DNA of 64,000 nt from positions 147,016 through 211,015 of the forward strand of contig MHNO01000009.1 of the NCBI GenBank assembly GCA_001819815.1, in the 5' to 3' direction. Position 1 is the stretch's first letter. Every line of letters begins with the position of its first letter. The stretch comes from Candidatus Ryanbacteria bacterium RIFCSPHIGHO2_02_FULL_45_17b (lineage in GTDB: Bacteria; Patescibacteriota; Minisyncoccia; Ryanbacterales; 2-02-FULL-48-12). Of the stretch, positions 4,897-62,121 are shown piece after piece. The notes below the pieces were generated by a model that saw only the letters and a list, made by a program, of their open reading frames with translations, was not told the origin of the DNA and ran no database searches. A program made the translations under genes and the position numbers.

Positions 4897-6657
4897 CTAT
4901 TGAATAAACCCGCCTGCTTGTATTTCCCACAGTTTTTTATAAACACCGCCTTGCCCAAGTAATTCTTCATGCGTACCCGTGGCGATTATATCCCCTTCTT
5001 CCATGACAATAATGCGATCCATTTTCATAATGGTGCTCAAGCGGTGCGCGATGACGATGACGGTCTTCTTTTTCATGAGTACGGATAACGCGTCTTGAAT
5101 AAGCATTTCAGATTCGGAGTCTAAACTGCTTGTTGCCTCATCAAGCACTAACATGGGGGCGTTTTTTAACAGCGCGCGCGCAATGGCAACACGCTGGCGT
5201 TCCCCGCCGGATAATTTTATACCCCGCTCGCCCACATAGGTTTCATACTCTTCCGGCAATCGAGAAATAAATTCATGGCAATGCGCCTTCTTGGCGGCCT
5301 CCACTACTTCTTCGTCCGAGGCGTCAAGCCTGCCATAGCGGATATTTTCCATAAGCGTGCGGTGAAATAAAATAGGTTCTTGGGGCACCAATGAAATTGC
5401 GTTCCGCATACTTTCCTGCGTTACGCGCGAAATGTTTTGGCCATCAATGAGTATTTCCCCGGCCATTATATCGTAAAAGCGAAAGAGTAATTTCGTGACA
5501 GTTGTTTTACCAGCACCCGATGCGCCCACCAAAGCAATTTTCTCGCCGCCTTTTATATGAAGATTAAAATCTTTAAGAATACTTCGTGTTTCATTAAAAT
5601 TAAATGAAACGTTGTTAAAATGAATTTCACCTTTTGTCACGGAAAGTTTTTTAGCACGCGCGTGATCTTGCACTTCATGCGGGAGGTTTAAAATTTCAAC
5701 CATTTCATGCGCGTCCGCAATTGCCTCATACGATTTACGCACCGTCTGCCCCAAATGCCATACCCGTTCAAACGCGCGTATAATATAGGCCTGAATAAGC
5801 GCAAAATCACCTATTGTTACAATCCCCCTCTGCCACAACAAAACAGCAACATATAAAAGACTAATCTCCACCACAATAAAAAGAGCGCCCTGTGCCGTAT
5901 TTATCCATTCATCTATGGTCCATGTTTTAAAACGTAAAAGCCGTAACTCTTCGGTAATACCATACACCATGGAATATTCTTTTGCTTCACCCGCAAACGA
6001 TTTAACGGTTGTTATGTTTGAGATAGAGTCTGACAAAATACCCGTCGTTTCAGAATCTTTGGCGGCGAGCATAATATTATATTTCTGCTTCCAAATAGTG
6101 ACCGCATATTGCGCTGAGATAAATATGATAAGCCAAACAGTAAATACGACACCCAACAACCAGTGCCGCATAAAAAGCACCGTTATAATGATGGGAAACG
6201 TAACAAGGAATGGAAGATACACATAATGAAATTGATCAGTAAGAATCTCAAAAGAACGATCCAGCCGGTTTATACGGCGCACCAAAGAACCGGCAAAATT
6301 ATTCGCGAAAAATTTATAAGAATGATGTTCCACATACGCAAATGATGTCCGCATGAGATCAGCCTTAATATGTGGCTGTACATATACGTTGGCAAATTGG
6401 TTAACACGGTGAAAGAGCCACGTAATCCCATACAAGCCCGCGATCATCGTGATCAAAAAGAAAAGCTCTTGCATAACATCATCATTTGACCCAGAAGCGT
6501 TTGCAAGTACGTCGAAAAATTTTTTGTAATAGAGCGGTACGATTGTTTCTACTATATGCACGCCTGCGTGAAAAAATACCACAAGAAAAACCGCGAGCTT
6601 ATAACGCCGCGCGTGCTGCCAAAATACGCGCAAAATCGGACGGATGGAATTGTCCAT
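4897..6657 (-). CDS. ABC transporter, fused permease/ATP-binding (MsbA/exporter type)
   Basis: Walker A GASGAGKTT, ABC signature LSGGERQRVAIARAL, Walker B LVLDEATSSLD, six N-terminal TM helices. Start chosen at the internal ATG (MDNSIRPIL). Confidence 0.8.
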   Translation of the reverse strand: MDNSIRPILRVFWQHARRYKLAVFLVVFFHAGVHIVETIVPLYYKKFFDVLANASGSNDDVMQELFFLITMIAGLYGITWLFHRVNQFANVYVQPHIKADLMRTSFAYVEHHSYKFFANNFAGSLVRRINRLDRSFEILTDQFHYVYLPFLVTFPIIITVLFMRHWLLGVVFTVWLIIFISAQYAVTIWKQKYNIMLAAKDSETTGILSDSISNITTVKSFAGEAKEYSMVYGITEELRLLRFKTWTIDEWINTAQGALFIVVEISLLYVAVLLWQRGIVTIGDFALIQAYIIRAFERVWHLGQTVRKSYEAIADAHEMVEILNLPHEVQDHARAKKLSVTKGEIHFNNVSFNFNETRSILKDFNLHIKGGEKIALVGASGAGKTTVTKLLFRFYDIMAGEILIDGQNISRVTQESMRNAISLVPQEPILFHRTLMENIRYGRLDASDEEVVEAAKKAHCHEFISRLPEEYETYVGERGIKLSGGERQRVAIARALLKNAPMLVLDEATSSLDSESEMLIQDALSVLMKKKTVIVIAHRLSTIMKMDRIIVMEEGDIIATGTHEELLGQGGVYKKLWEIQAGGFIQ

Positions 6658-17691: not shown

Positions 17692-19089
17692 GTGAATATG
17701 AAACGCATTCTCGCAACCATGTTGTCTTTATTCCTTTTAGTATCCTTTTTTCTGCCATCCCGCGCTCTTGCGGCGCGTTCGCTCTCAATCGGACTCTCGG
17801 GCAGTGATGTGGCGGCGTTGCAGAACGTCCTCATTGAAAAAGGATATCTTGCCACGGGAAAAGCCACCGGGTATTTCGGCCCCCTCACAGAAGCCGGTAT
17901 CAAAAAATTCCAGTGCGACCAAAACATCGTCTGCGCGGGAACACGTGCTTCCGGCTACGGCGTATATGGACCTCGCACGCAAGCGGCTCTGGCAGGTGCT
18001 AGCTCAATCAATCAATTTGAGTTTTCCGGGTGGATACCCTACTGGCGCACAGCCACCGGCACCGCGGATGTTCTCCCCCACCTCTCGCAACTCACAAGCG
18101 TAATGCCTTTCGGGTACACCATGAAAAACGACGGCACGCTTGCCGATACCGCGAAACTTAGGGAAGAACCCTGGACGTCGTTTATTGCGGCGGCAAAAAA
18201 AGCAAATGTCCGCGTTGTTCCCACTGTGATGTGGGGTAATGGCGAGACCATACACCGCGTACTTAGCAACACCGCCACGCGCATCGCGCTGGAAGATGAA
18301 ATAGCGAACGTAGTAAAGCAAAGTGGGTTTGACGGCATTGATATAGACTTTGAAGCAAAAAAACATGAAACCATAGATTATTTCTCCACGTTTCTGAAAG
18401 GGCTTGATATGCGCCTCGGCAACAAATTGCTCTACTGCACAATTGAGGCTCGTATGCCGCTGGACCATCGCTACAGCCCTGGTGCTGTCATACCACCCGA
18501 TGCCATGGATTACGCCAACGACTACAAAGAAATAAACAAATACTGTGACCGCGTAGAAATCATGGCATATGACCAAGGCACCATAGACGTGCATCTGAAT
18601 GGCATCCGGTCAAAACCATACGCGCCGGTTGCCGATCCGGCATGGGTGGAGACATTGGTTACCCTCGCGGCAAAAAGCATTTCAAAAAATAAAATCATAG
18701 TGGGCATCCCCACCTATGGCTATGAATATCAAATTTCACTTCTTCCGGACGCAAGTTTTGAGTATAAGGTGCTTTGGCCGTTTAACCCCCGATACGCCAT
18801 TGATATCGCCAAAAAAATCGGCATCACCCCCACTCGAACCGGCGCGGGCGAGTTAGGTTTTCTGACAACTTCAGCCACATCAGTTCCCGCGGGCGCCGAA
18901 GCCACAGAAGCAGAACCAACAACCATTCCGCCCGTAAGCACGCTCATTTCTTTAAATTACCTAACCTGGAGTGACGCAAAAGCTATTGCGGACAAAGTCG
19001 CCCTCGCGCGGAAATTAGGCGTACGCGGCGTGGCAGTCTTTAAGTTTGACGGCGGACAAGATCCCGGGATGTGGGGCGTATTGAAATAA
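17692..19089 (+). CDS. Secreted glycoside hydrolase family 18-like protein with N-terminal peptidoglycan-binding domain
   Basis: Signal peptide; PG_binding_1-like repeat (LSGSDVAALQNVLIEKGYLATGKATGYFGPLTEAGIKKFQ); GH18 catalytic motif FDGIDIDFE. Confidence 0.7.
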   Translation: MNMKRILATMLSLFLLVSFFLPSRALAARSLSIGLSGSDVAALQNVLIEKGYLATGKATGYFGPLTEAGIKKFQCDQNIVCAGTRASGYGVYGPRTQAALAGASSINQFEFSGWIPYWRTATGTADVLPHLSQLTSVMPFGYTMKNDGTLADTAKLREEPWTSFIAAAKKANVRVVPTVMWGNGETIHRVLSNTATRIALEDEIANVVKQSGFDGIDIDFEAKKHETIDYFSTFLKGLDMRLGNKLLYCTIEARMPLDHRYSPGAVIPPDAMDYANDYKEINKYCDRVEIMAYDQGTIDVHLNGIRSKPYAPVADPAWVETLVTLAAKSISKNKIIVGIPTYGYEYQISLLPDASFEYKVLWPFNPRYAIDIAKKIGITPTRTGAGELGFLTTSATSVPAGAEATEAEPTTIPPVSTLISLNYLTWSDAKAIADKVALARKLGVRGVAVFKFDGGQDPGMWGVLK

Positions 19090-56480: not shown

Positions 56481-56642
56481 CATGAATTACGAAACACACC
56501 CTCATCCGATGAACGTCACGCGAATTAATAACGTCTTGCGATGACCCAATTTGGTCATCGCAAGACGTTATATTGTGCTTGCGTATGCAAATCGATGGGA
56601 GGTCATCAGATGAGAGGAATACATGTGTTTCGTAATTTAAAG
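56481..56642 (+). mobile_element. MITE copy 3 (162 bp) flanked by a perfect 8-bp TSD tactttac (56473-56480 and 56643-56650)
   Basis: Same termini and internal 15-bp hairpin as copy 1; lacks a 19-bp segment present in copy 1. Confidence 0.7.
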
Positions 56643-56706
56643 TACTTTACATTCTATCCTCTTATTTTATACTTACATCAGGTCTAAAATATAATTAACC
56701 AAACAT

Positions 56707-57333
56707 ATGCAAAATAATTTACAAAAAGGGTTCGCGATGCCGACAGCCATCGCAATCGTCGCGATAGTTTTGGTGTTAGGCGGAGTCGTATTCTATGCGA
56801 ACCGTTCACAAACCACAAATGATAAAATGGCGCAGGAAAAAGCCATGAGGGAACAGGAGGCGATGGAACAGAAAGAGAAAGACATAATGATGAATAAGGA
56901 GGAAGCCAACATGATGGACAATGACAAGAACGGAATGATGCCCGCTGAAGGCGGAACATATTCCGGTGCGGTGCTTGCCGGAACATCAGCCCCCCTTCTT
57001 GACTTTACAAAGGCAGACTATGACTCGGCCATAAAAACGAATAAACTGGTCGTTCTCTATTTTTATGCGAACTGGTGCCCGATCTGCAAGAAAGAATTTC
57101 CCATCATGCAAGAAGCATTCAATGAGCTGGAAACAGATGCCGTAGTCGGCTTCAGAGTTAATTACAATGACGACCAGACCGACGATACCGAAAAGAACCT
57201 GGCGCGAGAATTCGGCGTTGCCTACCAGCATACGAAAGTATTTGTGAAAAACGGTACAAGAATTCTTAAATCACCGGAAAGTTGGGACGACAAACGTTAC
57301 GATATAGAGATCAATAAGGCCCTAACTCAATAA
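56707..57333 (+). CDS. Membrane-anchored thioredoxin-like protein (TlpA-like, WCPIC)
   Basis: Signal anchor, Met/Glu-rich linker, thioredoxin fold with LYFYANWCPICKKEFP. Confidence 0.65.
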   Translation: MQNNLQKGFAMPTAIAIVAIVLVLGGVVFYANRSQTTNDKMAQEKAMREQEAMEQKEKDIMMNKEEANMMDNDKNGMMPAEGGTYSGAVLAGTSAPLLDFTKADYDSAIKTNKLVVLYFYANWCPICKKEFPIMQEAFNELETDAVVGFRVNYNDDQTDDTEKNLAREFGVAYQHTKVFVKNGTRILKSPESWDDKRYDIEINKALTQ

Positions 57334-57336
57334 TAC

Positions 57337-58044
57337 ATGACAGAAAGTCTTCTCATCGGGGCGTTTCTTGGTGGACTTATTTCTTTTCTTGCCCCTTGCG
57401 TCCTCCCCATCATTCCGGGTTTTCTTGCCTATCTTGCCGGCTCAAGCACTAGCGAGACAGGATCGAAGCGTAAAGAAATATTTTTGAACAGTATGTTCTT
57501 TGTGCTTGGCTTTGGAGTCGTCTTTGCTCTTCTCGGGGTGTTACTCAATACTCTCCTTGAAGGTATCGCCTATGACGTGCAGACATGGCTCTCGCGCATC
57601 GGAGGAGTGATGATTATCTTCTTCGGTCTCTATCTTGTGGGGCTCATCAAAATTCCTTTTTTGGAAAAAGAATATAAATTTGGCGTAAAGATAAAATTCA
57701 AATCCCGCTACGCCACGTCGTTTCTTTTTGGTTTGGCCTTTGCCGCCGGATGGACTCCTTGCGTCGGCCCTGCTTTGGGAGTCATTCTTGGTCTTGCCGC
57801 CACACAGCCTGGATCGGCCTTTATCCTGCTTCTCACCTATGCGCTGGGGCTTGGCATACCGTTTCTCATTGTTGGCGCTTTTACCGCAGAGGCTTCAGAA
57901 TTTATCAACCGCCACGCGGTAGGCCTCACCTATCTCAATATTGTTTTTGGAGTCATTCTGCTTATTCTTGGCGTCCTCATATTTACCCAAAAACTTGCGC
58001 TCATTGCCAATTTTGATTTTCTCAATAGACTGCTTCTTACCTAA
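57337..58044 (+). CDS. ccdA: Cytochrome c-type biogenesis/thiol-disulfide transporter CcdA (DsbD core)
   Basis: LAPCVLPIIPGFLAYLAG and a second conserved TPCVGP Cys. Confidence 0.75.
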   Translation: MTESLLIGAFLGGLISFLAPCVLPIIPGFLAYLAGSSTSETGSKRKEIFLNSMFFVLGFGVVFALLGVLLNTLLEGIAYDVQTWLSRIGGVMIIFFGLYLVGLIKIPFLEKEYKFGVKIKFKSRYATSFLFGLAFAAGWTPCVGPALGVILGLAATQPGSAFILLLTYALGLGIPFLIVGAFTAEASEFINRHAVGLTYLNIVFGVILLILGVLIFTQKLALIANFDFLNRLLLT

Positions 58045-59190
58045 ATGAACAGCGCAAAGCAATACATTCTTATCGTGGTCGTGATCATTCTTGGTGGCGC
58101 GATCTACTTCATTAATTCGACGAGCGTGCAAAGAGGCGGATCAGATGAGACGGTAACGGTTGCGCCACGAGTCCCCTCTGCATCGAACAGTACAACAGCT
58201 TCTCCACCTACGGAAGCCGCAAAAGATACCACGTCTCGTACGTTTCTTTCTGCGGAAGCAAAATCAAAACGTTATGAACTCGCCAAAGAAATTACAACCC
58301 CCGACGGCTTTATAAATACCCCTTCAACAAGCTCAGGGCAGGCAACTCCCATTACCATTGGCGAGCTTGTCGGCAAAAAAGTAGTGCTGATCGATTTCTG
58401 GACATACAGCTGTATCAATTGCCAGCGCACCACTCCATATTTAAATACATGGTACGAAAAATATAAAGACAAAGGGCTCGTTATTATTGGTGTGCACACA
58501 CCGGAATTTGAGTTTGAAAAAGATTATACCAATGTCAAAACGGCGGTAGAAAAATTTGGCATTAAATTCCCGGTTGTGCTCGACAATGATTACTCAACAT
58601 GGACCGCATACAAGAATCAATACTGGCCGAGAAAATATCTTATAGATATAGATGGTTATGTTGTATACAACCACATCGGTGAAGGAGGGTACGAGGAGAC
58701 GGAAAAGAAAATCCAGGAGGCTCTTTCGGAGCGCATGGCTGTTTTGGGAGAGGATGGCACAATTACCCAGTCGCTTACGAAAGATACTTCTGCTCAGAAC
58801 GAAGCAAAAAGTCCCGAAACCTATTTTGGATCGGCGCGCAATAACCAGCAAGCGAGCCTGCTATTTCCCCGTGATAGCTGGAACATACAACCCGAATTTG
58901 CCGAAAATAATTCTACGGGTGCAAGCATAGTTTATACATATACAGCCAAAGATGTTTTTTTTGTTGCAAAGGCAGACACCGAAACTATCGTTGAAGTTCT
59001 TCGCGACGGCAATCCTCTTGGTTCAGAAGCCGGAAGCGACATAGTGAAAACTCCCGACGGAAAGACTGTCCTTAAAATAAAAGAAGCGCGGCTCTATAAA
59101 ATTATAGAGGGCGAGAAATCAGAAACTCATAAGCTTGAGCTCAAAATCCAAAAGCCGGGCCTCAAAGCATTCACCTTCACGTTCGGGTAA
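58045..59190 (+). CDS. Thiol-disulfide oxidoreductase, TlpA/ResA-like redoxin with C-terminal extra domain
   Basis: VVLIDFWTYSCINCQRTTPYLN...GVHTPEFEFEK; signal anchor; ~150-aa beta-rich C-terminal extension. Confidence 0.65.
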   Translation: MNSAKQYILIVVVIILGGAIYFINSTSVQRGGSDETVTVAPRVPSASNSTTASPPTEAAKDTTSRTFLSAEAKSKRYELAKEITTPDGFINTPSTSSGQATPITIGELVGKKVVLIDFWTYSCINCQRTTPYLNTWYEKYKDKGLVIIGVHTPEFEFEKDYTNVKTAVEKFGIKFPVVLDNDYSTWTAYKNQYWPRKYLIDIDGYVVYNHIGEGGYEETEKKIQEALSERMAVLGEDGTITQSLTKDTSAQNEAKSPETYFGSARNNQQASLLFPRDSWNIQPEFAENNSTGASIVYTYTAKDVFFVAKADTETIVEVLRDGNPLGSEAGSDIVKTPDGKTVLKIKEARLYKIIEGEKSETHKLELKIQKPGLKAFTFTFG

Positions 59191-59443
59191 TAGCTGAATT
59201 CAAAAAACAGACAATCAAAACGAAACGCTTCGAAGTCGGATCAGATTGAGCATGCGTTTTTTGGTGATGGGACCGAAGAAGCCCTCGGCTGGACTGATGT
59301 TTTGCTCTTGTTGAAATCTCCGTACAGCAGTTTTCGGTGGCGACAGAAATAAAAGCCAGTCCGGTGGTATCAGCGAGAGGCGTCATGGTTTCTTCAATGG
59401 GAGCGGCTGCGGTAAGCCTGTCGAATCCATATCCAATGTCTGA

Positions 59444-59483
59444 GCAAAAACAAAAGACGTTTGAGAAAAAAGCAGTGAAATTA
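59444..59483. repeat. 40-bp perfect direct repeat, copy A (identical to 60164-60203)
   Basis: gcaaaaacaaaagacgtttgagaaaaaagcagtgaaatta appears twice, 720 bp apart, bracketing the methyltransferase gene. Confidence 0.8.
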
Positions 59484-59512
59484 TAACGAGGAAGCTGGTG
59501 ATTTGGTTCATA

Positions 59513-60121
59513 TTATTTTTTTGCTATTATCTGAATCCAATTTGTCTTACCAGAAGTCGTTATATTTTTGTAAACAATATGCAGTCCTACATTGATTACG
59601 TAATTTTCCATTTCTTCTAAAGTATAATAACTAAAAAACCTTTCGTATTCGTAGCCATAGTCATTTTCTTTTAGTAGTTCTTCATCAAAATTGCCTGGTT
59701 TTTGTTCTTTTACTGCTACGCAGAAATAACCATCTGGTTTAAGAGGAGCTATGATGTTTTTAAGCACATCTGGTACCTCTTTTTTGGGGATATGTAGTAA
59801 GACTGCATGAGCAAGCACTCCATCAAATATTTTTTCGAGATCAAGTGGTTGTTTAATATCCTTTACAAAAAAATGACCTGCTGACGCCTGTTCCTTAGCA
59901 AGAGCGATCATTTCTTCAGAGAAATCAATTCCAATAACCCTAAAACCCTTTTTGATTAAATACTTAGATTTTATAGCAGCTCCACATCCAATATCTAAAA
60001 TTAATGAGTTCGACTTAAGGAAGGAGAGGTACTTATCAATACCACCTATCCACCATATATCTTCTTCATGGTCTTGCATCCAATCTTTAGCTATCCTGTT
60101 GTAGGTTAATCTAAGATTCAT
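59513..60121 (-). CDS. Class I SAM-dependent methyltransferase
   Basis: Motif I ILDIGCGAAIKSKYL; motif post-I VIGIDFSEEMI. Confidence 0.7.
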   Translation of the reverse strand: MNLRLTYNRIAKDWMQDHEEDIWWIGGIDKYLSFLKSNSLILDIGCGAAIKSKYLIKKGFRVIGIDFSEEMIALAKEQASAGHFFVKDIKQPLDLEKIFDGVLAHAVLLHIPKKEVPDVLKNIIAPLKPDGYFCVAVKEQKPGNFDEELLKENDYGYEYERFFSYYTLEEMENYVINVGLHIVYKNITTSGKTNWIQIIAKK

Positions 60122-60126
60122 AAGTT

Positions 60127-60165
60127 TTATTTCTTCACCGCTTCCATCTTGAGGAGTTTTTTGGC
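60127..60165 (-). pseudogene. Relic 3' end of a second mscL copy (encodes ...AKKLLKMEAVKK*)
   Basis: About 36 bp homologous (roughly 85% identity) to the mscL 3' end at 60779-60816; abuts direct-repeat copy B. Confidence 0.5.
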
Positions 60166-60203
60166 AAAAACAAAAGACGTTTGAGAAAAAAGCAGTGAAA
60201 TTA
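60164..60203. repeat. 40-bp perfect direct repeat, copy B
   Basis: Identical to 59444-59483. Confidence 0.8.
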
Positions 60204-60290
60204 GAACCAAGACGCTCGAGATTTTTCTTGTCATAAATTTAGTTACAGTAAATTGCTTCGGAATAAGTATTTGTTTGATTAGTCTCACCT

Positions 60291-60767
60291 TTATTGGATA
60301 TATCCGCCATGCACAAAACAACGATAAACAATTTTACCATTAAATAATATCTCTTCCTTGCCAACAAATCTTACGAGATCACCGTCAATGCTAAACCGGT
60401 ATTCCCAGTCGCTGGCAACAAACTTGCGCGGGCCTCGGACAGGAACTGATCTCTCGTATTCTTGTATTAGAGCTTTCCTTAAAAAGCCGTAAACTTCTTT
60501 TTCATCAATGCCCTCATCGAGAATAAAACCATAGTAATTTGCTCCCCATGATGGCTTTTCGTCTTGATAGACAATTTCTTCGCCGATGAAATCTCTGACG
60601 CCGAAATATGTATCATGGTAGATTAGCCCGTCTTTTTCAAAGTGGTAGTCTTCGGATTTCAGACGGCTTGATTCTACTTTGGGCGCATCTTTGTTTGCAT
60701 ATGTGCTCTTATTAGCCACATTGAGAAAGTGAGCGAGAACATTTTTTGGTAAATCTTTATAACTCAT
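60291..60767 (-). CDS. Hypothetical protein
   Basis: 158-aa ORF immediately downstream of mscL. Confidence 0.4.
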   Translation of the reverse strand: MSYKDLPKNVLAHFLNVANKSTYANKDAPKVESSRLKSEDYHFEKDGLIYHDTYFGVRDFIGEEIVYQDEKPSWGANYYGFILDEGIDEKEVYGFLRKALIQEYERSVPVRGPRKFVASDWEYRFSIDGDLVRFVGKEEILFNGKIVYRCFVHGGYIQ

Positions 60768-60778
60768 AAAATTATTTT

Positions 60779-61096
60779 TTATTTCTTCGCCGTTTCCATC
60801 TTAAGAAGCTTTTTGGCGATGATAAAAATTATGAGGGCGAGTATTAGAAAATTAAAAAGCTCGGCGATGAACGAACCAATGGCGATGGTAACCGGGCCGA
60901 TATGCCACAATGCTTCTCTCCATGACTCCGCTCCCATGAGCGGGGTGGCGATGGGCAAGAGCACATCTTTGACCAGCGAATTTACCAGTGATGTTGAAGC
61001 CGTGCCCATCACAAAACCGACGGCCAAAGCGACAATATTAAATTCTTGTAAAAATTTGGCGAATTCTCTAAACATAGCGTTCTTTGTGTAAGCCAA
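60779..61096 (-). CDS. mscL: Large-conductance mechanosensitive channel
   Basis: FREFAKFLQEFNIVALAVGFVMGTA...LLPIA...FLILALIIFIIAKKL, MscL family. Confidence 0.8.
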   Translation of the reverse strand: MAYTKNAMFREFAKFLQEFNIVALAVGFVMGTASTSLVNSLVKDVLLPIATPLMGAESWREALWHIGPVTIAIGSFIAELFNFLILALIIFIIAKKLLKMETAKK

Positions 61097-61230
61097 AAAT
61101 CAAAAATACAATCACACTTCCAACTGGTATGTCGCTTTTTAAAATATAGATAGGCACTCAGCCAAAACCATCTCATCTTTCAAGAATTTTCCTGCCCCTG
61201 TTGTAAGATAATGCCGATTTTCATAGGAGC

Positions 61231-61920
61231 CTAACTCAAATCCTTTTTCTTATCCTCAAATTCCTTCTTGTCTATTTCACCTTTAGCATATCGCTCGTCC
61301 AAAATAGCGCGCGCGGATTTTGCATGGTCGCGTGTTTCATAAGATTGACCCGTGAGCCACTTGACAAGCGCGACAATGCCGGCGATTATCAAGACCCACC
61401 AGAGGATCATAAAAATAAAGCCGAACCCGCCGAAAGGCGTAAATCCAAAGTTCATCATAGAATTGTTTGATTGATTAGTATTAAAGGGAGACGACCACCC
61501 TCCCCACATCATATTCATCATCGGCATCCAGCCGCCGCTGATTGCCGGAAATGCCGCGGACGCATCGCAACCGGAAAGCCGCTTGCCCATAACGATATGG
61601 ATTTGTTCCTCGCCATCTTCGCCGTGCGCTTGAATCATCATGGCGTTCATGGCGGCGTGAGAATCTCCGGACATCTGACCCATGAAGTATTCTCCAAGCA
61701 CTCCATACTGCTCATCGTTTAAACTCTCGCAAACCAGCTCTTTGGCCTGCAGTTTACTCCAAAGTTCTTTGCCTTCTTGTTCTTCGCGGGCGGTGTGTTC
61801 AACGACTTCGTTCCAATCGACTGTCGTGTTAGAAAACCCGCCCATCATTTGAGCATTCACCGAGCCGGCAACCACAAAGACTAATCCAAAAACAAAGATT
61901 AAAACTAAAAGTTTTTTCAT
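61231..61920 (-). CDS. Met/His-rich secreted-domain membrane protein with C-terminal SHOCT domain
   Basis: Signal peptide; M-rich motifs (MMGG, MNAMMIQAH, WMPMMNMMWGGW); TM; SHOCT (ARAILDERYAKGEIDKKEFEDKKKDL). Confidence 0.55.
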   Translation of the reverse strand: MKKLLVLIFVFGLVFVVAGSVNAQMMGGFSNTTVDWNEVVEHTAREEQEGKELWSKLQAKELVCESLNDEQYGVLGEYFMGQMSGDSHAAMNAMMIQAHGEDGEEQIHIVMGKRLSGCDASAAFPAISGGWMPMMNMMWGGWSSPFNTNQSNNSMMNFGFTPFGGFGFIFMILWWVLIIAGIVALVKWLTGQSYETRDHAKSARAILDERYAKGEIDKKEFEDKKKDLS

Positions 61921-62121
61921 GCCCTCATTGTAGCAAATTTTTATCAACTTGAACAGCGTAATGTACTTTGATGAGCTGTAGCAAAAAAATCCACTATGGG
62001 AGTTTTACGGGAACAGCAGGCTGGATAACCCTGATTCCCCACATGGTTGCCCGTATGGCGAGCCCTAAAACCAAATTTGAGAGCGTGGGACGATTTGCTT
62101 AAGTTTAGAAAAATTAAGCAA

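Follow-up and report, generated by a model that had tools for sequence, protein, structure and literature searches.

Transfer hotspots between core genes were reportedly described by Oliveira, Touchon and Rocha in 2017, with homologous recombination in the flanks said to swap the accessory genes that they enclose. In T6SS effector-immunity clusters and Rhs/CDI loci, orphan immunity genes and displaced modules with 3' relics have been reported (PMC5361080). Homology-facilitated illegitimate recombination is known from natural transformation (de Vries and Wackernagel 2002; Prudhomme et al. 2002; Meier and Wackernagel 2003; summarised in PMC3240628); its illegitimate junctions show 3-10 bp of microhomology, and recipient DNA is typically deleted (PMC3240628). 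When a circular molecule integrates by a single crossover, the homologous segment is duplicated, with one copy to each side of the inserted DNA (PMC3240628).

The locus described here lies in a 64-kb stretch of DNA, the whole of which was analysed and is called the window. It contains mscL, a DUF5680 gene, a methyltransferase gene and the remnant of a secreted-protein gene, all of them minus-strand genes, and two perfect 40-bp direct repeats enclose the methyltransferase gene (Table 1). With a probability of roughly 0.7, the locus is a recombination scar in which two versions of a slot were stacked at a small accessory-gene hotspot. Version 1 would be represented in the window by mscL, DUF5680 and a signal-peptide 5' end, and version 2 by an mscL 3' relic, the methyltransferase and a signal-peptide 5' end with the gene remnant. 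The head-to-tail joining of the two versions is what we infer from this arrangement; conservation of the flanking genes and variation of the cargo were seen in related genomes. As a scar it is ordinary: it is a further instance, from an uncultivated lineage of Ryanbacteria, of a type of event already known.

Table 1. Features of the locus, in window coordinates
Feature	Coordinates	Strand	Description
Putative remnant of collapsed ~800-aa secreted-protein gene	59215..59511	minus	Signal peptide, Pur_ac_phosph_N/fn3 and C-terminal PG_binding_1 in intact homologues
Weak terminator-like hairpin	59215..59233	minus	End of minus-strand gene string; consensus match only
Repeat copy A	59444..59483	minus	Native context, then QTLD like relatives
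Copy A signal-peptide start	59484..59511	minus	ATG at 59511; MNQITSFLVI; L127 type by alignment
Class I SAM-dependent methyltransferase	59513..60121	minus	202 aa; Pfam Methyltransf_23/25/11; second accessory gene
mscL 3' relic	60125..60165	minus	Last 12 codons, stop codon and 2 nt
Chimeric 35-codon ORF	60127..60234	minus	MTRKISSVLVLISLLFSQTSFVFAKKLLKMEAVKK, then stop; signal peptide fused to MscL tail
Repeat copy B	60164..60203	minus	Signal-peptide core ISLLFSQTSFVFA; terminates at putative illegitimate junction
Copy B signal-peptide start	60204..60234	minus	ATG at 60234; MTRKISSVLV; type beside DUF5680 in L134
DUF5680 gene	60291..60767	minus	158 aa; Pfam DUF5680 E = 4.7e-30; first accessory gene
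Intact mscL	60779..61075	minus	98 aa; Pfam MscL E = 1.5e-19; upstream conserved flank of slot

The 64-kb window contains exactly two copies of the 40-mer (GCAAAAACAAAAGACGTTTGAGAAAAAAGCAGTGAAATTA), 720 bp apart and at the two positions given in the original prediction. A search of the window that tolerated as many as 3 mismatches detected no third copy, and the expectation from shuffled sequences was also 0. The prediction of a 40-bp repeat was correct for the perfect part and too short for the similarity as a whole, which continues between the copies for 21 further bases (15/21 identical); the repeat finder reported the 40-mer and this extension as one family (D1) of 61 nt with 90% identity. 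Both repeats are coding: translated from the minus strand, the 40-mer gives ISLLFSQTSFVFA, the hydrophobic core (h-region) of a signal peptide together with its c-region/cleavage region, and it is preceded by diverged starts of 28 nt in copy A and 31 nt in copy B. The ATG of copy A sits 1 nt past the methyltransferase stop, and the ORF that begins there reads MNQITSFLVIISLLFSQTSFVFAQTLDMDS and hits a TGA after 42 codons. The start sequence of copy B (ATGACAAGAAAAATC) also opens the secreted-protein gene in two relatives, L133 and L134; the gene of L134 opens with MTRNMTRKITRKIVSVL, which has a MTRKI...SVL start like that of copy B. In the Wolfebacteria genome L127, 36/40 bases are identical to the 40-mer at the equivalent place in an 810-aa gene, and tblastn aligned residues 1-27 of the L127 protein to 60234..60154 (copy B). 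Judged from these alignments, both 40-mers are the duplicated signal-peptide start of the decayed downstream gene, and they would have no independent function as repeats.

Next to copy B, a fragment of about 36 bp had been predicted to derive from the 3' end of mscL. Its mscL origin was supported by local alignment of 60125-60165 with 60777-60817 (36/41 identical; E = 8e-7 in the window), and its size was revised to 41 nt, with an overlap of 2 nt (GC) with copy B. Copy B ends within the first codon of the relic, after the GC of the Ala codon GCC. The repeat finder had paired 60125-60175 with 60777-60827 (family D2), which the local alignment shortened to the 41 nt. The relic encodes AKKLLKMEAVKK followed by a stop, and the intact mscL tail is AKKLLKMETAKK followed by a stop. 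The intact MscL of the window is identical to a named protein of Candidatus Ryanbacteria RIFCSPHIGHO2_02_FULL (Rifle), and over 100 relatives, which are 70-87% identical to it, share the tail AKKLLK[ML]E..KK. Because three of the five differences between relic and mscL are synonymous and the peptide encoded by the relic lies inside the range of orthologous MscL tails, the relic resembles the tail of a diverged mscL that was once functional, and not a copy of the resident gene in decay.

The region 59191-59443, which had been considered non-coding, contains the remnant of the gene of about 800 aa. Tblastn with the L127 protein placed residues 4-44 at 59505..59398 (strongest over 4-28), residues 55-80 in another frame at 59413..59336, and residues 767-810 at 59349..59218; residues 81-766, roughly 686 codons, are missing. 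An in-frame TGA lies at 59383-59385. The read-through translation of 59511..59215 matched three PG_binding_1 proteins (P0121-P0123) that end in GPITKKRMLNLIRLRSVSF, as the window does. The L127 protein starts with MKQKITGFLVIISLLFSPTSFIFAQTLD and ends with GPITKKRMLNLIRLRSVSF; the window starts with MNQITSFLVIISLLFSQTSFVFAQTLD and has the identical end. The Pfam domains given in Table 1 for intact homologues were read on the secreted proteins of L123 and L127. Since both termini match a secreted protein that is conserved beside mscL in relatives, 59215-59511 is interpreted as a collapsed pseudogene with a frameshift. A genetic code in which UGA specifies an amino acid, which would rescue the ORF from 59511, was rejected, as TGA ends 15 of the 51 long ORFs and is therefore a normal stop. 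A PG_binding middle part in another frame, first suggested by tblastx against L118, was replaced by the clearer match to L127 residues 55-80. In the promoter and terminator scan, sites were no commoner than in shuffled sequences, and the weak hairpin at the end of the gene string was the only terminator-like feature.

The predicted methyltransferase gene proved to be real; its ORF is intact and of full length, and it is the sole intact gene of the 720-bp unit. Its GC content of 33.3% is the lowest of any 609-nt stretch in the 64-kb window (mean 44.3%, sd 3.7), with 0.16% of windows being as low. Apart from identical sequences, the best homologues reach only about 70% identity and all come from Patescibacteria, and in other Patescibacteria the homologues are located in islands alongside serine recombinases, genes for restriction-modification and further defence-type genes. 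The low GC content and the island homologues fit a gene moving between lineages. The methyltransferase starts 5 nt past the stop codon of the relic. In relatives, the spacing between mscL and the next gene ranges from overlap up to 13 nt, and that between methyltransferase homologues and their upstream genes is 2-5 nt; the 5-nt gap is thus normal both for genes that follow mscL and for methyltransferase homologues. The relic may serve as the ribosome-binding spacer of the methyltransferase, as originally predicted; a GGTGA motif, a candidate Shine-Dalgarno site, is located 12 nt ahead of the ATG, which is a far distance. The gene has probably kept its original upstream context, and it is probably co-transcribed with mscL and DUF5680. 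Gene context analysis found none of the closest homologues (about 70% identity) after mscL. Elsewhere, methyltransferase homologues are found near serine recombinases, unlike at this locus.

Comparison with related Parcubacteria showed the order mscL, 0-3 small accessory genes and an approximately 800-aa secreted PG_binding_1 protein. The slot was empty in L123/L130, L132 and L136, with a spacer of 4 to about 13 nt. It held an ASCH/DUF3850 gene in L127, a Ser_hydrolase gene in L119, a metallo-beta-lactamase-fold gene and a 100-aa gene in L129, and a glyoxalase-like gene, a Ser_hydrolase-cupin gene and a nucleotidyltransferase in L131; in L133 it held a 122-aa gene, and the secreted-protein gene was reduced to 178 aa. 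In L134 a DUF5680 homologue with 70.6% aa identity is followed by the signal-peptide gene, so that slot version 1 (mscL, DUF5680, signal-peptide gene) is present there. Slot version 2 (mscL, methyltransferase, signal-peptide gene) was not found in the relatives examined, which were the near-clonal population itself and otherwise none closer than about 70-87% protein identity. When 80 GTDB genomes were compared through the thioredoxin-like neighbour, the downstream genes were not conserved.

The repeated pieces (the 40-mer with its start, and the mscL relic) thus share homology with the ends of the slot's flanking genes, and in relatives these two genes are adjacent or surround other cargo. In its behaviour the locus is comparable to a horizontal-transfer hotspot between core genes, on a very small scale. 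It resembles such hotspots in that the conserved mscL and the secreted PG-binding protein enclose lineage-specific cargo, here of foreign GC content; it differs in its tiny slot of 0-3 short genes, in its occurrence in Patescibacteria and in having duplicated flank ends in place of a clean swap. We would suggest, tentatively and as the less probable view, that the slot from mscL to the gene of the secreted PG-binding protein is an actively used exchange site across Parcubacteria. Its homology arms would be two conserved gene ends, 3' for mscL and 5' for the signal peptide, single genes would be swapped or stacked from DNA taken up from relatives without a dedicated recombinase, the window would capture an intermediate in the growth of such arrays, and the 40-bp repeats would still permit the methyltransferase to be lost now and then.

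The T6SS and Rhs arrays share several features with the locus: a module added beside a resident one, a stub from the 3' end of the conserved gene before it, and repetition of a conserved segment; homology-facilitated illegitimate recombination is proposed for both. Unlike those arrays, the locus has no toxin/immunity logic and two modules only, and its duplicated flank is the 5' end of a signal-peptide gene.

At the sole non-homologous junction of the locus, the signal-peptide segment stops and the mscL tail follows. This junction has exact microhomology of two bases (GC), or of 8/12 bases patchily, and no recombinase site. Under the stacking of two slot versions, illegitimate joining would have placed the last base of the version 1 signal-peptide segment next to version 2 mscL, at a position 12 codons from the end of that gene. 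The duplicated signal-peptide 5' end, the 41-nt mscL stub and the chimeric 35-codon ORF would be leftovers of this event, and the secreted-protein gene would have decayed to a pseudogene after it. The original prediction of a repeat-cargo-repeat geometry held, and an origin of the 720-bp unit by gene-adding recombination was supported as well.

Three routes could lead to this structure. DNA of a relative may have been taken up and joined by one homologous crossover and one microhomology junction, that is, by homology-facilitated illegitimate recombination; a circularised fragment may have entered by a single crossover inside the 40-base identity block; or the resident gene may have served as template for the 40 bases after a template switch during repair synthesis. 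The three routes yield the same product and are indistinguishable here, as is the direction, that is, which version was resident. The first route agrees with the locus in its apparent pairing of one homologous side with one microhomology junction and in the addition of about 0.7 kb of foreign DNA, but 61-71 nt are duplicated here and the junction has 2 exact bases (8/12 patchily). For the second, a Campbell-type crossover, the direct repeats of a shared segment flank the insert as expected and the 40-base block is a plausible crossover site; however, it needs a circle of about 720 bp, or one trimmed later, that already held the signal-peptide/mscL junction. We know of no such circle of about 720 bp. 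Several points count against stacking: the 2 exact junction bases fall under the usually reported 3-10, no relative examined holds version 2, and homology-facilitated illegitimate recombination usually deletes recipient DNA and does not duplicate it (PMC3240628).

The identities of the duplicated pieces are uneven, with 15/21 (71%) in the bases beyond the 40-mer, 40/40 (100%) in the 40-mer and 36/41 (88%) in the mscL relic. By our own arithmetic, the probability of 40 straight matches is about 1e-6 at the 29% divergence of the 21 bases and about 6e-3 at the 12% divergence of the relic; given these diverged neighbours, 40 straight matches are unexpected under uniform divergence. The block may already have been identical in both parents and been used by the crossover, both copies may stem from one template during the event through template switching, or the identity may be due to later gene conversion. 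As these three readings are possible, the identity is no proof of functional maintenance, and the suggestion that it reflects active maintenance is not upheld: the 40 bases may be a crossover block or copies of a single template. A perfect 40-mer beside a start of 71% identity also counts against stacking, as it demands an extra assumption, be it prior identity of the block, a signal peptide of chimeric origin, copying from a template or later gene conversion.

The same values bear on the explanation, also raised in the original prediction, that the mscL-gene-signal-peptide region was long ago duplicated in tandem within one genome, after which the cargo of the left copy was overwritten and gene conversion kept the 40 bases identical. 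Tandem duplications are common, and the geometry fits, with a 720-bp period, a signal-peptide/mscL-tail junction and homology of all three pieces. A simple duplication of this kind is nevertheless unlikely, for the divergence of the pieces is uneven, the changes in the relic are orthologue-like and not decay-like, and the GC content of the methyltransferase is foreign. Moreover, the copy B start is of the DUF5680-linked type of another lineage (L134) and the copy A start is of the L127 type. Overwriting would still require an incoming DUF5680 version, so that this explanation merges partly into the stacking of slot versions.

The arrangement of one intact gene between perfect direct repeats could also be read as an active cassette, in which the 720-bp unit excises or integrates through the 40-bp repeats, either site-specifically or as a RecA loop-out switch of the methyltransferase. 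An identity of 40 bp can in principle support rare homologous deletion, but this explanation is very improbable on several grounds. In the roughly 6 kb of each flank, none of the called genes had a Pfam match to a recombinase, integrase, transposase or resolvase. The 40-mer contains no inverted repeat or hairpin and folds like shuffled sequences (z = -0.18), the 80-nt contexts of the two copies fold no better than shuffles (z = +1.14 and +0.65), and no inverted repeats were found at the ends of the 720-bp unit. The repeat amounts to no more than the beginning of the gene next to it. The 40-mer and the 760-bp unit were absent from the viral contig, plasmid and phage collections. An exact scan of metagenome_contigs for the 40-mer returned nothing, which is weak evidence, as a JGI contig retrieved otherwise holds the 40-mer and the collection is thus incomplete.

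Population variants lacking the 720-bp unit, for which a search had been proposed, were not encountered among the assembled contigs. All site-spanning contigs retrieved by DUF5680, mscL or the thioredoxin-like protein, a retrieval that is unbiased regarding the methyltransferase, carry the unit. All spanning contigs, from more than 10 independent assemblies made with different pipelines, had the same structure with 99.6-100% identity and with both 40-mers perfect. The deletion junction (copy B start, 40-mer and TCAGACATTGG) occurred in no spanning assembled contig; a circle or tandem junction would read copy A start, 40-mer and CAAAAAACTCC. There is no sign of excision in the assembled contigs.

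Known element types were compared with the unit as well. It resembles an integron cassette in being a single promoterless gene in an array with repeated sequence at its bounds, and differs in having no attC-like hairpin and no integrase and in that its repeats are pieces of neighbouring genes; an integron cassette was rejected for the lack of an attC-like hairpin at the boundary and of IntI within about 6 kb. An insertion sequence or transposon was rejected as there are no terminal inverted repeats and no transposase and the 40-bp repeat is gene sequence, and an integrase-mediated island as there is no tyrosine or serine recombinase in the unit or its flanks.

That the 35- and 42-codon ORFs encode functional small secreted or membrane peptides forming a module with the methyltransferase is hardly credible. 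Both ORFs are open, with an ATG start and a plausible signal peptide ending in VFA, and the 42-codon ORF is annotated by gene callers in several assemblies. Against this, the C-terminus of the 35-codon ORF is verbatim the mscL tail, and the 42-codon ORF enters the frameshifted remnant of the 800-aa gene, its stop having been made by decay. No homologue was found among 5.8 billion proteins except the relatives of the full-length gene, and no such neighbours accompany the methyltransferase homologues elsewhere. The 35-codon ORF, which had no Pfam match, is probably a by-product. An assembly artefact merging two strain variants could be imagined for a metagenome-assembled genome from a strain-diverse population whose upstream region at about 61.4-61.5 kb differs between strains, but it is ruled out by the identically arranged block in more than 10 independent assemblies, with both repeats spanned in contigs of more than 10 samples from different pipelines (k141, ANAN16 scaffolds, JGI), by k141, which exceeds the 40-bp repeat if it is the MEGAHIT k-mer size as assumed, and by the 2 common bases of the relic junction, which are too few for k-mer graph joining.

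If two slot versions were stacked here, the locus offers a base-resolved case of the addition of an accessory gene to a reduced Patescibacteria genome with both junctions still readable, in which the addition would have been anchored by recombination in conserved neighbour genes and not by a mobile element. The annotation of the region is corrected, in that the 42- and 35-codon ORFs and the "intergenic" stretch are read as fragments of mscL and of a lost cell-wall-binding protein of about 800 aa. The practical value is modest: the scar may serve as a marker of strain history, and it illustrates that perfect repeats around a gene need not mean mobility. Among the strain variants, the block 56561-61376 carried only two SNPs, and the variation was focused at 61377-61515.

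Comparison of the strain-level contigs, which come from independent metagenome assemblies of a near-clonal population carrying this locus, showed that nearly all of their differences were concentrated at window positions 61377-61515, within a SHOCT-domain gene. The differences in this segment comprised clustered SNPs, a 21-nt insertion in contig L012, and a 60-nt deletion in contig L005. The 4.8 kb downstream of the segment was almost without variation among these contigs, and past the segment on the upstream side they carried three alternative gene sets. Contigs L002-L005, from at least four independent assemblies, all ended within about 40 bases of one another, at about 56554-56590 of the window; this clustering may point to a repeated sequence there, or to a junction that varies among strains.

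Features of the window and of its strain-level contigs
Feature	Position	Strand	Remark
SHOCT-domain gene	61231..61947	minus	contains variable segment 61377-61515
Clustered contig ends	about 56554-56590		intergenic, upstream of thioredoxin-family gene at 56707
Upstream gene set 1			as in the window itself
Upstream gene set 2			type I restriction-modification
Upstream gene set 3			glycosyltransferase/CorA

Homologues of the class I SAM-dependent methyltransferase, with about 70% identity, were found in other Patescibacteria (loci L097, L098-L100, and L101), where they began 2-5 nt past unrelated upstream genes. Their island neighbours were serine recombinases and HTH regulators, and the same islands also held EcoRI-type methylase, GmrSD, and Ymh-family genes. 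Ser_hydrolase genes occurred repeatedly beside mscL and beside the methyltransferase homologue.

In L133, a locus from another lineage, the gene of the secreted PG-binding protein, about 800 aa in relatives, had shrunk to 178 aa (5686-6222); its product retained both the signal peptide and the C-terminal PG_binding_1 end. This collapse was apparently independent of that at window positions 59215-59511, and the two together suggest that the middle of the gene has been lost recurrently. In L134, another relative's locus, a short tandem reiteration was present at 882-930, where the secreted-protein gene starts: ATGACAAGAAAT ATGACAAGAAAAAT AACAAGAAAAATC (MTRNMTRKITRKI). The 5' end encoding the signal peptide appears to be prone to slippage or to recurrent recombination. 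Another PG_binding_1-like segment, at about 17773-17991 of the window, had about 43% identity to the C-terminal domains of the proteins of relatives' loci L123 and L127, and may represent a paralogous cell-wall-binding protein.
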